The notes beneath the pieces are model-generated. The model had not been told where the DNA came from. It saw nothing but the letters and a program-made list of their open reading frames with translations, and ran no database searches. The position numbers and the translations under genes were made by a program. Of a DNA stretch of 42,541 nt, positions 13,661-19,557 are shown one piece after another; within the stretch, counting starts at the first letter, position 1; each line of letters begins with the position of its first letter. Source of the stretch: Syntrophorhabdales bacterium (lineage in GTDB: Bacteria; Desulfobacterota; Syntrophorhabdia; Syntrophorhabdales; WCHB1-27); assembly GCA_050011095.1 (NCBI GenBank), contig JBEKJU010000023.1, forward strand, positions 1-42,541. The letters run 5' to 3'.

Positions 13661-14281
13661 ATGATAAGGAAGATGTGTGACCGGTTAAGAAAGGCCATGC
13701 CGGGGAAAGGGTTCGCCTGTTGCGCGGCGGCGGTGATCCTGGGCCTCTCTGTCACGGCGGGATACGGGTTTAGCTCGGCGCACCTCGATCAGGTCAAGAA
13801 GACGAACAGGTGCGAGGGGTGCGACCTAACCGGTGCCGACCTCGGCAAGGCCATCATGAACGACGCCAGGATGGCAGGCGCCAGGATGGCAGGCGCCAGG
13901 ATGGCAGGCTCGGACCTGTCCTCCGCGGACCTGTCCTCCGCGGACCTCTCGGGCGCGGACCTGTCAAAGGCCGACCTCGTGGGCGCCAATTTCTGGAAGG
14001 CAAACATGTCCGACGCCAATCTGGCCGGAAGCAGGCTCTCCTGGGCGAGGCTGACGAATGCGGACCTGTCCCGGGCGAACCTTAAAGGGGCTGATCTTGC
14101 GCGGACGGACCTTGCGGGCGCGAAGTTGTCCGGTACCACCTGGACGGACGGAAGGATATGCAAGGAAGGCTCTGTAGGGGAGTGCAAGACCGGGCCCGGC
14201 CAGCCCGCGGAAAAGACGAAGTCCGGCAAAGGCCCCCACAGGTCCCCTCAAAGTCCGCCCGGTTCCCCCGGCGGGGGGTGA
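13661..14281 (+). CDS. Exported pentapeptide-repeat protein
   Basis: Signal-like N-terminus, CEGCDL followed by A(D/N/R)(L/M)xx pentapeptide repeats, WTDGRIC...EC, and a Pro/Gly tail. GGAGG RBS. Confidence 0.88.
   Translation: MIRKMCDRLRKAMPGKGFACCAAAVILGLSVTAGYGFSSAHLDQVKKTNRCEGCDLTGADLGKAIMNDARMAGARMAGARMAGSDLSSADLSSADLSGADLSKADLVGANFWKANMSDANLAGSRLSWARLTNADLSRANLKGADLARTDLAGAKLSGTTWTDGRICKEGSVGECKTGPGQPAEKTKSGKGPHRSPQSPPGSPGGG
13864..13947 (+). repeat. Two exact 15-bp tandem repeat tracts inside the pentapeptide gene
   Basis: CGCCAGGATGGCAGG x3 (13864-13908) and CGGACCTGTCCTCCG x2 plus a partial copy (13911-13947). Confidence 0.9.
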
Positions 14282-14785: not shown

Positions 14786-15079
14786 TTAATAACGGGGTCT
14801 GTTGTCCTGTCTAGCCCTGAACGCCAGGGCTAGTTTTAGCTGCTTTATCGCCTTCTCGCTCGCCTCAATGGCCTTGGCCTTGTGTCCCCGGAAATCATGG
14901 GGGGCCCGCTGCATCTCGGCTACCGCAGCCTCCAGAGCCTCTATCGCCCTTGCGATGTTGGGATGCTCGACGGCCTCCTCCCGCACCATGGGCCCCTGGG
15001 CCTGCACCGTCCTGACCGTTGCAGCGGTCACGCAGACAAGAAGAAATACCACCATCACCATACCGATAACCTTTTTCAT
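14786..15079 (-). CDS. Small exported helical protein (HP...HDFxGHK motif)
   Basis: 97 aa from ATG 15079 with a GGAGG RBS. Signal peptide MKKVIGMVMVVFLLVCVTAA; mature part EHPNIARAIEALEAAVAEMQRAPHDFRGHKAKAIEA. Confidence 0.8.
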   Translation of the reverse strand: MKKVIGMVMVVFLLVCVTAATVRTVQAQGPMVREEAVEHPNIARAIEALEAAVAEMQRAPHDFRGHKAKAIEASEKAIKQLKLALAFRARQDNRPRY

Positions 15080-15290
15080 CACGCCTCCCTTCTGATTTTT
15101 TTTGGTTCCTTCTCTCAAAATCGACCTCGCTTGAGAAAGTCGGGACCATAGTGAGCCCCATTTTGTGTCCCTGTCCCCCCGTCCGCCATGAGGGGGGCTA
15201 AATCGCCCTTTTTGCGACAGGGTCGGTGAAGACCAACGGAAGGCCTTCATGCGGCAGAAGGCCCCTCAATGCCCTCTGGCATGGCCAACA

Positions 15291-15391: not shown

Positions 15392-15437
15392 TGTCGAACA
15401 GGGCGCTCCCGTTCGACAGGATTGTCGAATATCGCCA
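15392..15437. promoter_or_regulatory. Candidate enhancer (UAS) sites for a sigma54 activator
   Basis: Inverted repeat TGTCGAAC...GTTCGACA (15392-15418) and TGTCGAATATCGCCA (15423-15437), about 85-130 bp upstream of the -24 box. Confidence 0.4.
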
Positions 15438-15613
15438 CCCGTCTTTTCTCTCTCGACCCTCTTAGCACAATCCGTGTTCTCCACCCGATCGCGGCACGTG
15501 CGCGGCGCGGGACGGCCGTCTACACAGTGGCAGTACGGATTGATGGCAGGCAGTATGTTGGTTGAGGGTCTTGGTGCCGGTGCAAAGGGAGGCGTGAAGA
15601 AGTCGACGAGGTA

Positions 15614-17296
15614 TCACTTGGGCGAGATGACGGCCTTCGCCCTTTTCTCCTTCTCCCCCTCGACGTGAACGCGGTCCTCGTTGATATAGTACGTCACGGT
15701 GTCTCCCGAAACCCTGTCATTCCCTGAGAAGACGACCACATCCCCCTTCAGTATGATCTCGCCCTTATCGTTATAGAAGAACGCCTCTTTGCATGTTGCC
15801 GTTCTTTCAAGCTTGACGATCTTCACGTTTCCTTCGGCCTTTGCCCGGTCGATCTCGTTTGTCTGTTCATTGATGTAGGCGGTGAGCACATCCGAAAAGA
15901 GGTACATATCCACCTGCTTCGCGATCACATTGCCCTTGAAGACGATGATCGTGCCTTTCTCGAGTCCTTCCATCGTATCGGAGACTACGTCGACCGGTTT
16001 CTTTTCTGAAAAAAATCCGAGGGAGCCCTTCTTGTCACCACGTTTTTTCGCCTGTTCCTTCCCCCCGGCCTTCTTGTCAACATCGCCCTTTTCCGTCGCC
16101 GGACCGGCCGCCGTGGCCTCGCCTCCCGCCGCAGCCCCGGTCGTGCCCGCCGTGCTGTCCGATGACGCATGTGTCCCGGCCGCTTCGCCCGCGCCCTTCG
16201 GATCGGAGACGGTGGCCACCAACACCCCCGGCCTTCCCGGGTCGCCGCCCTGCCCTTTCTGACCGGTCGCGGCTGTAGCGGTTGAGAAAGGCGCCGGGCC
16301 GTTCCCCACCGCTCCGGTTTCCCCGGGGTTCCCCTGGGACAGGCCTGTGCCTGTCGCGCTGTCGCCGCTCGCCGCCGTCTGGACGGGTTTCAGGTCGATC
16401 TGCCTCACCTTCCTTTCATCGTAGGAAAAATCGGACATCGCCGGCCCCTGCCCCTGGCTTGCCGAAGCGCCTCCCGGCGTTACCGCGGGCGGAGCCCCCG
16501 CCCCGGTGTCGCCTCCCGCGCGGGCGGTAGTCGTCGAACCGGCCGCGGCGGCGCGGAGCGTCTTTTTCTGCCTCTTCGTCGACCCCGCGTAGATACTCTT
16601 TGGATATTCCTTTGCGAGCCTGTCCGCATAGAACTGGGCCCTCTCCGGATTCTGCAGCTCCCTGTAGTTCTGCGCCAGGTAATAAAGCGCCTTATCCCTG
16701 TCCTTGGCGTCGGGATACTTGTCCAGGAAGTAATTGAACCGGATGATCGAGGCGTTATATTTTCCCCACTTGTAGTAAAACTCGCCGACATAAACTTCTC
16801 GGCCCGCGAGCTTCTCCGTGAGGTTCTTGATGCGGATGTCGGCATCTTTCGCGTACGGGCTTGTGGGATAACGATTCTTGAGAAAAGTGAAACGCTCGAC
16901 CGCCTTGAACGTGTTTGCCTGGTCGCGGTCGATGGTGGGGGAAAGCCTCTCGTAGCATTCGGCGAGTCGCCGGAGCGCATAAGCCGCGTTCTCGTCTTCG
17001 GGGTAGCTGTTGACGAAGTCCTCATAGATGCCCGCAGCCACCAGATAGTTCTTTTTTTCGAACTGCGAGTCCGCCTGTTTCACCTGTGCGATGAGGGCAA
17101 TGGGATCGAAGGGAAAGTTCTCCCGGACCTTGCCGAAGCTCTCGATGGCCTTGTCGTAATTCTTCTTCTTCATGAAGGCGACGCCCTCGACGTAAAGGTT
17201 CGCGGGGTTGTCAACCTTCTTCACCTCGGCCTTTTTCCCGCCGCAGGATGGGAGGATGAGGCACAAAATGGCGATAACTATGAGGCTTTTTCGCAT
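15614..17296 (-). CDS. bamD: Lipoprotein fusion: BamD (YfiO TPR) + Ala/Gly/Thr/Pro-rich linker + LptA/OstA beta-jellyroll domain
   Basis: Lipobox LPSC. BamD-type TPRs (LYxEG...YDKAIESF...FPFDP, YEDFVNSYP, DRDQANT, YPTSPYA, LAGREVYVGEFY, YPD). C-terminal PVDVVSDTMEG...FKGNVIAKQ...AEGNVKI...LKGDVVV...GDTVTY is typical of LptA. Confidence 0.88.
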   Translation of the reverse strand: MRKSLIVIAILCLILPSCGGKKAEVKKVDNPANLYVEGVAFMKKKNYDKAIESFGKVRENFPFDPIALIAQVKQADSQFEKKNYLVAAGIYEDFVNSYPEDENAAYALRRLAECYERLSPTIDRDQANTFKAVERFTFLKNRYPTSPYAKDADIRIKNLTEKLAGREVYVGEFYYKWGKYNASIIRFNYFLDKYPDAKDRDKALYYLAQNYRELQNPERAQFYADRLAKEYPKSIYAGSTKRQKKTLRAAAAGSTTTARAGGDTGAGAPPAVTPGGASASQGQGPAMSDFSYDERKVRQIDLKPVQTAASGDSATGTGLSQGNPGETGAVGNGPAPFSTATAATGQKGQGGDPGRPGVLVATVSDPKGAGEAAGTHASSDSTAGTTGAAAGGEATAAGPATEKGDVDKKAGGKEQAKKRGDKKGSLGFFSEKKPVDVVSDTMEGLEKGTIIVFKGNVIAKQVDMYLFSDVLTAYINEQTNEIDRAKAEGNVKIVKLERTATCKEAFFYNDKGEIILKGDVVVFSGNDRVSGDTVTYYINEDRVHVEGEKEKRAKAVISPK

Positions 17297-17414
17297 CGTT
17301 TACTATAACAGAAACAGAAAATTTATGCTAATTTTATTACGGTGGCCCGCCTTTGTCAAAGGATAGAACCATACTTTGGGTCCTTAGGCGGATGGGCGGG
17401 TCCGGTGGTGTCTC

Positions 17415-17945
17415 GTGGAACGACTGCAAGACCTGATCGAGGAAGGTCTCACCCATTTTAATATCGACCATGACGCGAAGAGCGTCGGCCATCTCGTCTC
17501 CTACATCGGGGAACTAGAGCGGTGGAACCGGACGATGAACCTCGTCGGCCTTAAGGACAGCCGGCGGATCGTGGGCGAGCTCGTGTACGATGCCTTTTTC
17601 CTCCACACCCGCGTCGCCGGGGAGAGGTCCCTTCTCGACCTTGGATCGGGCGCGGGGGTTATCGCAATTCCCCTTTCCATACTGGATCCCACGATGCGGG
17701 TCATTTCGGTTGATAAGGGCCTGAAGAAGGTCCTTTTTCAGAGGCACGCGAGGAGACTCCTGGGTCTTGCCGGCCTCGAGATCATCCATGGACGCATGGA
17801 AGACGTCGCGCCCCTCGGCGTTCGGACACTCGTTGCAAAGGCCTTCGGGCCTGCGCGCGTTATTCTTGCCGAAGGCCGGAGGCATCTGGGCGAGGGGGGT
17901 CGTGCGTTCATCGTGAAGGGGTTCGTTTACAAAAAGGTTTCATAG
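17415..17945 (+). CDS. rsmG: 16S rRNA m7G527 methyltransferase RsmG (GidB), short C-terminus
   Basis: ELERWNRTMNLVG, LLDLGSGAGVIAIPL, KKVLFQ, GRME. Sits in the classic position upstream of parAB. Only 176 aa. Confidence 0.85.
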   Translation: MERLQDLIEEGLTHFNIDHDAKSVGHLVSYIGELERWNRTMNLVGLKDSRRIVGELVYDAFFLHTRVAGERSLLDLGSGAGVIAIPLSILDPTMRVISVDKGLKKVLFQRHARRLLGLAGLEIIHGRMEDVAPLGVRTLVAKAFGPARVILAEGRRHLGEGGRAFIVKGFVYKKVS

Positions 17946-17976
17946 ACAGATTGTTTTGTGCTAATGTATCTTGTCC

Positions 17977-18741
17977 ATGGGAAAAATCATAGCGATTGCG
18001 AACCAGAAGGGCGGCGTGGGGAAAACGACGACGGCAATCAATCTCGCCGCCTCGGTCGCCGTCGCCGAACATCGCACCCTCCTCATAGATATGGACCCCC
18101 AGTGCAACGCGACCAGCGGGTTCGGCGTATCATACGGTAAACTGAAAAAACACCTGTACCGGACCATTATCGGCGAGGCGACCATAGAACAGGTGATCGT
18201 GAAGACGGAACTTCCCATGCTCGATCTCGTCCCCGGCCATCCCGATATGATCGGCGCGGAGATCGAGCTTCTTGATATGGAGGAGCGGGAGCTGATATTG
18301 AAAAAGGCCCTCGTTGGGGTAAGGGAGAGTTATCCCTATACGATTATAGACTGCCCCCCTTCCCTGGGGCTCCTGACGGTCAATGCCCTGGCCGCCTCCG
18401 ATTTTGTCATCATTCCCCTTCAGTGTGAATATTACGCGCTGGAGGGGCTTGTTCTTCTCTTAAAGACGATCTCCGTGATCAAGAAGAAACTCAATCCCCC
18501 CCTGGACATTCTCGGGGTGCTTCTCACCATGTTCGACAAGCGGAACAACCTTTCCTTCCGGGTCATGGAGGAAGCGCGGAAACACCTCGGCAGCAAGGTG
18601 TTTCAGACGGTTATTCCGAGGAACGTTCGGTTGAGCGAGGCGCCGAGCTACGGGAAGCCCGTGATCCTTTACGATGCAGCCTCGAAGGGTGCGGAAAGCT
18701 ATCTCGATCTCGCCGCGGAAATATCATTTGACGGGGGATAG
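17977..18741 (+). CDS. parA: Chromosome partitioning ATPase ParA/Soj
   Basis: IANQKGGVGKTT, DMDPQCN, IDCPPSLG, QCEYYALEG, IPRNVRLSEAPSYG. Confidence 0.96.
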   Translation: MGKIIAIANQKGGVGKTTTAINLAASVAVAEHRTLLIDMDPQCNATSGFGVSYGKLKKHLYRTIIGEATIEQVIVKTELPMLDLVPGHPDMIGAEIELLDMEERELILKKALVGVRESYPYTIIDCPPSLGLLTVNALAASDFVIIPLQCEYYALEGLVLLLKTISVIKKKLNPPLDILGVLLTMFDKRNNLSFRVMEEARKHLGSKVFQTVIPRNVRLSEAPSYGKPVILYDAASKGAESYLDLAAEISFDGG

Positions 18742-19557
18742 ATGCGGAAGAAGGACCCGCTGGGGAGAGGACTTTCGGCTATACTGAAGGACGTGGACGA
18801 AGGGGGGATTCATCTTATCCCCGTGCAGCAGATAATCGTGAACCCCACGCAGCCCCGCGTCGAGATGCGGCAGGAATCGCTCGCCGAGCTCGCCTCCTCC
18901 ATCGAGGAAAAGGGGCTGCTCCAGCCTATTCTCGTGCGGAGGAAAGAGGGCGCCTACGAGATCATCGCGGGCGAGCGCCGTTTTAGGGCCGCAAAGATGG
19001 CGGGGCTGAAAGAGGTGTCCGCGATCATCAGAGACGTCGACGACCGCGAGGCCCTTGAGCTTGCAATGGTCGAGAACCTCCAGAGGGAGGACCTGAACCC
19101 TATCGAGATAGCGACCGTCTATGAGCGGTTCGTGGAGGACTTCGGCTACACCCACGAAGGCCTCGCCAAAAAAATGGGCATCGAGAGAAGCTCTGTTTCG
19201 AATTATATCAGACTCCTCAAGCTCCCGTCATGGATAAAGGATCTGATGGTAGAGGGCAGGCTGACCCAGGGCCACGGAAGGGCCCTCATCGGATTGACGA
19301 CCGAGCAGGATCAGAAGAAATACGTGAGAAAGGTGCTCGACGACGGCCTGTCGGTAAGAGAGCTGGAACAGGTGCGAAAAAAGGCGGGGCTACCGAGGCC
19401 CTCACCCTTCTCCCAGGTGGAAGAGATGCTGCGGGAGGTACTGAAGACGAAGGTGCAGGTGACCTTCAGGAGGAATAAGGGGAAGGTGATCATCGAGTTC
19501 TATTCAAAGGAGGACCTCGAAAGACTGCTCGACTCCCTTGCTGCCCTGCATCAATAA
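18742..19557 (+). CDS. parB: Chromosome partitioning protein ParB/Spo0J
   Basis: LGRGL, QPR, GLLQPI, IAGERRFRA, ENLQREDL and an HTH region. Confidence 0.96.
   Translation: MRKKDPLGRGLSAILKDVDEGGIHLIPVQQIIVNPTQPRVEMRQESLAELASSIEEKGLLQPILVRRKEGAYEIIAGERRFRAAKMAGLKEVSAIIRDVDDREALELAMVENLQREDLNPIEIATVYERFVEDFGYTHEGLAKKMGIERSSVSNYIRLLKLPSWIKDLMVEGRLTQGHGRALIGLTTEQDQKKYVRKVLDDGLSVRELEQVRKKAGLPRPSPFSQVEEMLREVLKTKVQVTFRRNKGKVIIEFYSKEDLERLLDSLAALHQ

Follow-up and report, generated by a model that had tools for sequence, protein, structure and literature searches.

Escherichia coli provides the closest described systems for the gene treated here. BamD is an outer-membrane lipoprotein of the machinery for beta-barrel assembly (BAM); a passage of a 2026 review reports its contacts with folding intermediates of LptD (PMC13067283). 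In the lipopolysaccharide (LPS) transport pathway, reconstitutions load LptA with LptDE as an 'LptADE' outer-membrane unit, according to a passage of PMC11447908, and a passage of PMC12498426 counts 'at least one' LptA unit in each bridge. Two lipoproteins, LptY (YedD) and LptM, are described as subunits of the LptDE translocon in PMC12644819. Here we describe a gene from a Syntrophorhabdales bacterium in which a BamD is joined to an LptA-type domain in one lipoprotein. It lies in a window of 42,541 nucleotides, which is the whole stretch analysed (contig JBEKJU010000023.1, called C23 below, of assembly GCA_050011095.1). By the list of open reading frames (ORFs) and by translation it is a single ORF of 560 aa at 15614-17296 on the minus strand with zero internal stops. 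Its parts are the following.

15614-17296, minus strand: whole gene of the 560-aa BamD-linker-LptA lipoprotein (ORF list and translation, both families matched; stop codon at 15614-15616)
17243-17296, minus strand: lipoprotein signal peptide, residues 1-18, with lipobox L15-P-S-C18 (sequence; TIGR03302 aligns from residue 3)
16544-17242, minus strand: BamD tetratricopeptide repeat (TPR) domain, residues 19-251 (TIGR03302 and YfiO profiles, AlphaFold2 (AF2) helices at 31-251, Foldseek)
16010-16543, minus strand: disordered Gly/Ala/Thr/Ser/Pro-rich linker, residues 252-429 (predicted local distance difference test (pLDDT), composition, length variation)
16382-16429, minus strand: conserved linker motif F-S-Y-D-E-R-K-V-R-Q-I-D-L-K-P-V, residues 290-305 (column conservation)
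15617-16009, minus strand: LptA-type beta-jellyroll, residues 430-560, at the extreme C-terminus (LptD_N, TIGR03002, AF2 strands 436-556, Foldseek, relatives with free lptA)

A sequence-only reading of the same DNA had seen in this uninterrupted frame a lipoprotein composed of a complete BamD-like TPR domain, a long linker and a C-terminal LptA/OstA jellyroll, placed at 17240-16590, 16590-16010 and 16005-15614. The ORF list and the translation bear out the frame, and the profile and model results fall within a few codons of these coordinates. HMMER searches matched both expected domains, YfiO and LptD_N. The lipobox LPSC (residues 15-18) follows a hydrophobic h-region, and at least 90% of the 55 homologues aligned retain its C18, in keeping with a lipoprotein; proline at position -2 is less usual by the lipobox consensus. 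YfiO (PF13525, Pfam) covers residues 30-220 with 116.3 bits (cut-off 25), while the NCBIfam BamD model TIGR03302 covers residues 3-235 with 202.5 bits (cut-off 81.4) and is itself matched over positions 2-237 of 239. AF2 models residues 31-251 as a TPR domain of helices (pLDDT 92-98 for the most part), and Foldseek puts it close to E. coli BamD in BAM complexes, with a target-normalised template modelling (TM) score of 0.87-0.90; these scores and models agree on a complete domain. Among individual matches are 5d0o_D (TM 0.89, root-mean-square deviation 1.9), 7nri_D (0.87) and 3qky (E-value 5e-14), and a PDB sequence search is consistent with the Foldseek matches of the domains of the fusion protein. 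In the phmmer alignment to 5d0o_D, R186 of the fusion falls on E. coli BamD R197, which we take to be the residue contacting BamA POTRA5, and it is invariant in the 55 homologues. The fusion gene is the sole TIGR03302 match above cut-off in a genome that is 94% complete (the next reaches 34 bits) and that also encodes BamA (662 bits). On these comparisons the BamD half looks functional. A second canonical BamD was considered and rejected for the assembled 94%, in which the other TIGR03302 matches are all at or below 34 bits.

The fusion is real and under selection. A database search returned 193 proteins at E ≤ 0.001, and our statements on database homologues cover the 120 matches listed: each of the 120 has both Pfam families, BamD first and the LptA domain at the extreme C-terminus (phmmer check). 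Because every listed homologue has both domains in the same order, the architecture is, as far as sequence comparison can judge, far beyond chance. Whether relatives share it had been left as a question by the sequence-only reading, and they do: in all 41 genomes examined of Syntrophorhabdales, an order of anaerobic bacteria, the halves lie side by side in collinear order, and 34 of the 41 have them in a single open frame. A scan of species-representative genomes (235 relatives, 75 loci kept) covered metagenome-assembled genomes (MAGs) labelled Syntrophorhabdales, Syntrophorhabdaceae or Syntrophorhabdus and the isolate Syntrophorhabdus aromaticivorans UI, whose orthologue has 568 aa. Contigs from three other DNA runs, each from a different study, show zero differences or gaps over 15938-16405 and 16460-16907; they are short and of low depth, one short off-target fragment is excepted, and several parts of the domains are uncovered. 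Most of the linker, where the sequence-only reading saw the risk of an assembly error, is reproduced without indels in this way, and 54 nt of it (16406-16459) are uncovered. RNA-library contigs lie at 15544-15680 and 16523-16741, which does not prove transcription.

Such a protein could be mimicked by a frameshift, by a chimeric junction or by the false merging of two genes where an assembly is fragmented. The genome is a MAG of 444 contigs, the low-complexity linker is GC-rich (70% G+C versus 52-55% in both domains), and the frame is broken in seven of the 41 relatives (G004, G007, G009, G010, G018, G019 and G020). Inspection of three of these seven loci showed a frameshift in each, twice within the repetitive linker and once within the final TPR. 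The pieces behind the break lack a start codon with a signal peptide and are therefore not independent lptA genes; the broken frames could be assembly errors or decay. Against an artefact speak the single frame in 34 of the 41 relatives, the 120 of 120 listed database proteins, the isolate genome, the fusions of other families described below, and the agreement of the contigs from the three other DNA runs with the linker wherever they cover it. We consider an artefact vanishingly improbable. Misassembly was rejected on these grounds.

The C-terminal half has the profile and the fold that the LptA/OstA assignment predicts. LptD_N (PF03968, Pfam) matches residues 437-541 with 58.1 bits (cut-off 20.4), AF2 gives a beta-sandwich at 436-556 with pLDDT of ~84-94, and over 130-140 Foldseek columns the TM-score is 0.79 to E. 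coli LptA 2r1a_H, 0.77 to 2r19_B and 0.76 to Pseudomonas aeruginosa LptH 4uu4. Across the 55 homologues 14 columns of its 131 residues are invariant, some at either end of the jellyroll (P434 and D440; Y536 and P559). In most families of the phylum the domain has relatives of 35-46% identity in separate frames of 160-220 aa. Nine loci of other families were fetched, and in each the free relative (162-207 aa) is encoded between lptC and lptB; the five fetched with wider flanks show a canonical kds-lptC-lptA-lptB-rpoN-hpf operon. The fused domain scores 85-118 bits against free operon LptAs and only 26 bits against the LptC-fused jellyroll of its own genome. A maximum-likelihood tree was built from 49 jellyrolls: 22 came from the 120 database homologues, 8 were fused domains from other families, 9 each were free LptAs and LptC-fused domains, and LptD-N served as outgroup. 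It places fused and free LptAs together and the LptC-fused ones apart (support 83-88); its deep branches are weak, the branching among fused clades and free LptAs is not resolved, and the label 'same order' for database proteins is an assumption from similarity. The predicted domain is best called LptA-type rather than canonical LptA, because it is not a separate protein of an lptCAB locus and narrowly misses the cut-off of the LptA equivalog TIGR03002 (64.1 bits at residues 431-560, 7.6 under the cut-off of 71.7).

Besides the fusion, the genome encodes LptC, LptB, LptD (split across the ends of contigs C79 and C71), LptE (33 bits) and KdsD. LptD_N has matches at three places only, namely the fusion gene, LptD and a 326-aa ORF on contig C91 (locus L002, 1453-2433, minus strand). 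This ORF belongs to a kdsD-lptC-lptB-rpoN locus and occupies the position where lptC and lptA normally sit. It has a transmembrane helix, an LptC match of 74 bits and a second, LptA-type jellyroll (LptD_N, 56.8 bits), and AF2 models it as the helix followed by two jellyrolls (predicted TM-score, pTM, 0.70). The sequence-only reading had left it to be seen whether a separate lptA exists; the LptD_N family search of the contigs of this genome found no free lptA, and the lptB locus carries the LptC with its second, LptA-type jellyroll. All ten order members inspected have the double-jellyroll LptC: this genome, eight relatives and S. aromaticivorans UI, the last bearing both the BamD-LptA and the LptC-LptA-type fusions.

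The same family search found no free LptA in a further sample of 41 genomes of the order that are at least 90% complete, and for 38 of them the best-scoring LptD_N frame has 417-587 aa. Nearly all LptD_N frames in these genomes belong to one of three size classes: that of the fusion (417-587 aa), that of the double LptC (303-348 aa) and that of LptD (650-800 aa). Outside these classes fall the frame-broken fusions of G007 (284 aa) and G018 (262 aa), frames of 165 and 198 aa, one of them at a contig start, the LptD of G005, whose N-terminus is truncated at the end of a contig, and, in frames of 285-290 aa, three weak matches of 21-29 bits. In G017, contigs C16 and C17 carry two frames with LptD_N that are as long as a double LptC (340 and 306 aa), together with a weak match in a 290-aa frame; the double LptC may be duplicated in this genome.

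It appears to us, with a probability of about 0.5, that the protein functions as BamD and keeps, beside BAM, the LptA unit of the Lpt bridge that lies nearest to the outer membrane. Lipidation at C18 would place it in the inner leaflet of the outer membrane, and the TPR domain would serve within BAM as the BamD subunit of the cell. The disordered leash of 178 aa would then hold the jellyroll in the periplasm near the outer membrane, where it could act as the bridge unit nearest to that membrane. It would pair through its C-terminal edge with LptD's N-terminal jellyroll and through its N-terminal edge with the second of the two jellyrolls of the LptC-LptA-type protein, which is anchored in the inner membrane. 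An anchor at the N-terminus should be compatible with pairing of this kind, since LptC too is a jellyroll anchored in that way. The order would thereby have no freely soluble bridge component: both ends would be membrane-anchored and the number of LptA-type units would be set by the genes. As a further step, sites of LPS delivery might be kept beside BAM, where LptD itself is assembled. Judged by the architecture, coupling between BAM and Lpt is plausible. The sequence-only reading had proposed that the tether might bring LptA to newly folded LptD or link LPS export with the insertion of outer-membrane proteins, and both proposals derive from the architecture. The shortest linkers, of 29 aa among the 120 homologues listed, would keep the jellyroll within a few nm of BamD, which fits an outer-membrane-proximal position, and the 'LptADE' and 'at least one' passages quoted above would also fit such a bridge.

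Several points weigh against this interpretation. In the AF2 model, built on 55 homologues, the domains have no set orientation towards each other (pTM 0.47), and the case is made from sequence and structure models. The TIGR03002 score stays under its cut-off, the frame is broken in the seven relatives named above, free operon LptA coexists with the fusion in three other family-level groups (f9, f10 and f58), and the conserved motif of the linker has no place in a model of tethered LptA. A three-chain complex prediction (periplasmic double-jellyroll part of LptC, N-domain of LptD, fused LptA) scored 0.56 and a control with chain 1 replaced scored 0.38, which is neither support nor counter-evidence.

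The linker deserves a closer look in this respect. It is 178 aa long (the sequence-only reading had ~190 aa), 56% Ala/Gly/Thr/Pro and 11% hydrophobic, with pLDDT below 50 over residues 254-423 in the AF2 model, as expected of the long flexible linker that had been proposed. Its length among the 120 homologues listed ranges from 29 to 334 aa with a median of ~130 (phmmer domain boundaries). The motif columns are occupied in 54 of 55 aligned sequences and are strongly kept (R298 in 45 of 54, I300 in 52, L302 in 53 and P304 in 49), and the columns around them are nearly free of constraint. A related aromatic-acidic-basic motif occurs in one or two copies in the linkers of the f10 fusions, and the relative G007 (locus L149) has an R-Q-I-E-L-x-P-P core in three tandem copies. 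Given this conserved motif, the linker is to be regarded as more than a spacer, and our guess is that the motif is a strand-like peptide that binds a partner. In the AF2 model it is docked onto neither the BamD nor the jellyroll domain.

A binding partner of the motif would suit a protein that organises the envelope in space, in which the jellyroll or the motif anchors BAM to another envelope structure, or in which the jellyroll carries a lipid other than LPS, with no canonical role in the bridge. BamD does bear another C-terminal module elsewhere, a Cds6_C domain in the family-level group f23. We find this improbable, since the nearest relatives of the domain are bona fide operon LptAs and a full LPS pathway would otherwise be left with no LptA unit on the outer-membrane side.

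The distribution of the fusion across the phylum bears on two further explanations. The phylum sample comprised 151 genomes at least 90% complete, 149 of which match the fusion protein at E ≤ 1e-12, nearly all via the BamD half. BamD is matched in frames of 230-320 aa in most families, which have the C-domain match in a frame of its own. BamD-LptA fusions occur in at least four further family-level groups of Thermodesulfobacteriota: in four genomes of f10 (524-568 aa), in four genomes of f9 and f58 (503-560 aa), and in f23, where locus L142 (917-3538, minus strand) encodes an 873-aa lipoprotein with the order BamD, linker, LptA jellyroll, linker and Cds6_C NTF2-like domain. In three more f23 genomes the BamD match falls in open frames of 674-885 aa. 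LptA-type domains are tethered in two other families, by similar low-complexity linkers, to N-terminal domains resembling TolB_N/FlgT_M (loci L143, 463-2217, plus strand, 584 aa, and L144, 387-1610, minus strand, 407 aa); these proteins have ordinary signal peptides and no BamD. That LptA is normally separate, as the sequence-only reading stated, holds for most families, but the phylum also has LptA-type domains tethered to several N-terminal modules. In the ESM Atlas the fused architecture appears as three clusters (55, 92 and 108 members), the commonest known phylum being Thermodesulfobacteriota. In a quick tree of BamD halves, unfused proteins part the fused ones into three to four groups; support for the deep branches is weak, and the 20 unfused rows come from the top of the match list, a non-random sample. 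The trees are compatible with one origin of the fusion or several, and we draw no conclusion.

Since the f9, f10 and f58 genomes have free LptA, their fused domain is an additional LptA and need not serve as the sole one; it could act otherwise. It might be a helper of LptD assembly, a docking or holdase module with no function as LPS conduit, that captures the N-terminal jellyroll of nascent LptD at BAM and aids the folding or hand-over of LptD, a slow and demanding client of BAM. The contact of BamD with LptD folding intermediates, in the review passage cited at the outset (PMC13067283), would agree with such a role, as would the linker minimum of 29 aa among the 120 homologues listed, which keeps the domain close to BAM. 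Free LptA in those three groups, or the LptA-type domain carried by LptC in Syntrophorhabdales, means that the bridge might be complete even if the fused unit took no part in it. It is more difficult to explain in this way why the domain is LptA-like over its full length and nearer to operon LptAs than the LptC-fused jellyroll is. Docking would also need only one conserved edge, and invariant columns are found at both ends (P434 and D440; Y536 and P559). We regard a role confined to LptD assembly as rather unlikely, though helping LptD and bridging do not exclude each other.

The protein might also be a precursor, in which fusion ensures co-expression and export and a periplasmic protease then cuts the linker to free a soluble LptA. 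A long disordered linker is accessible to proteases, all 120 homologues listed end in the LptA domain, and no free lptA gene was found in the order by the family search. On the other hand, a linker of 29-334 aa in those 120 proteins shows little conservation beyond its one motif, and we recognised no cleavage-site signature in it. The phylum moreover tethers LptA-type domains to TolB_N-like domains as well as to BamD, in one case with Cds6_C, and such variety of modules suggests that anchoring itself is selected. Cleavage is, in our estimate, an unlikely explanation.

The reading that we prefer, a BamD holding the outer-membrane-proximal LptA unit, can be extended tentatively. Syntrophorhabdales might possess a bridge without a soluble part and with the fixed order LptF/G, LptC-LptA-type protein, BamD-anchored LptA and LptD; BAM and the LPS translocon might form one linked site, new LPS and new beta-barrels being inserted at the same spots; and the linker motif could be a latch recruiting a further partner. 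This fuller picture we hold to be possible but doubtful.

The surroundings of the gene include two candidate regulatory elements.

17331-17359, minus strand: sigma-70-like promoter TTGACA-17-TAAAAT, 11 of 12 consensus positions (consensus match only), ending 35 nt 5' of the ATG
15392-15418, minus strand: weak terminator-like hairpin of 11 pairs, ~200 nt past the stop of the fusion gene (consensus scan)

The promoter scan found 3 sites versus a mean of 0.6 in shuffles, and the hairpin scan found 5 sites versus 4.2, a count not above the shuffles. On the upstream side, rsmG (GidB), parA and parB (17415-19557, plus strand) are transcribed divergently from the fusion gene; this gene set is often near the chromosomal origin. 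Directly downstream is a 154-aa ORF (14786-15250, minus strand) with no Pfam match, in which an internal Met opens an apparent signal peptide followed by a small helical protein. Further on, a 206-aa pentapeptide-repeat protein (13661-14281, plus strand; 131 bits) has a hydrophobic N-terminal segment and a Pro/Gly-rich tail.

Full-text literature searches found no paper describing a BamD-LptA fusion, neither 'LptA' nor 'fused' occurs in the text of the 2026 BAM review (PMC13067283), and public annotation names these proteins simply BamD or LptA. The architecture appears uncharacterised in print, as the sequence-only reading had supposed and as the searches bear out. It addresses two open questions, how insertion of outer-membrane proteins is coordinated with delivery of LPS, and how many LptA units a bridge contains, for which the passage of PMC12498426 gives only its lower bound. 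By an argument of the Rosetta-stone kind, a covalent fusion of a BAM subunit with LptA would imply that both machines work side by side. Together, the BamD-LptA and LptC-LptA-type fusions would give a bridge of fixed stoichiometry anchored at both ends and suited to structural work. The cultured S. aromaticivorans UI offers both fusions in one organism, and the domains are also amenable to E. coli depletion strains.

Compared with BamD (E. coli 5d0o and 7nri chain D; Rhodothermus marinus 3qky), the fusion shares the lipobox, the five-TPR fold, the TIGR03302 match and an Arg at the R197 position, but adds ~310 C-terminal residues, the disordered linker and a complete LptA-type jellyroll, to a protein that in E. 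coli has 245 aa. With LptA (YhbN; E. coli 2r19 and 2r1a, P. aeruginosa LptH 4uu4) it has in common the fold, the Pfam family and 35-46% identity to operon LptAs; however, the fused unit is the C-terminal domain of a predicted outer-membrane lipoprotein, not a separate soluble secreted protein, and it is encoded away from lptC and lptB (the fusion on contig C23, the lptB locus on C91). LptY and LptM are likewise outer-membrane lipoproteins, and according to PMC12644819 they act on LptD at its gate or its periplasmic beta-taco. They set a precedent for placing lipoproteins where the Lpt pathway reaches the outer membrane. Their folds are unrelated to that of the fusion, and neither is a BAM subunit or an LptA homologue. 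The likeness to LptC is that of a jellyroll tethered to a membrane via its N-terminus. The anchor of LptC is an inner-membrane helix with a short connector, whereas that of the fusion is a BamD lipoprotein with a long disordered linker, so that the fused LptA would be the mirror image of LptC at the outer membrane.

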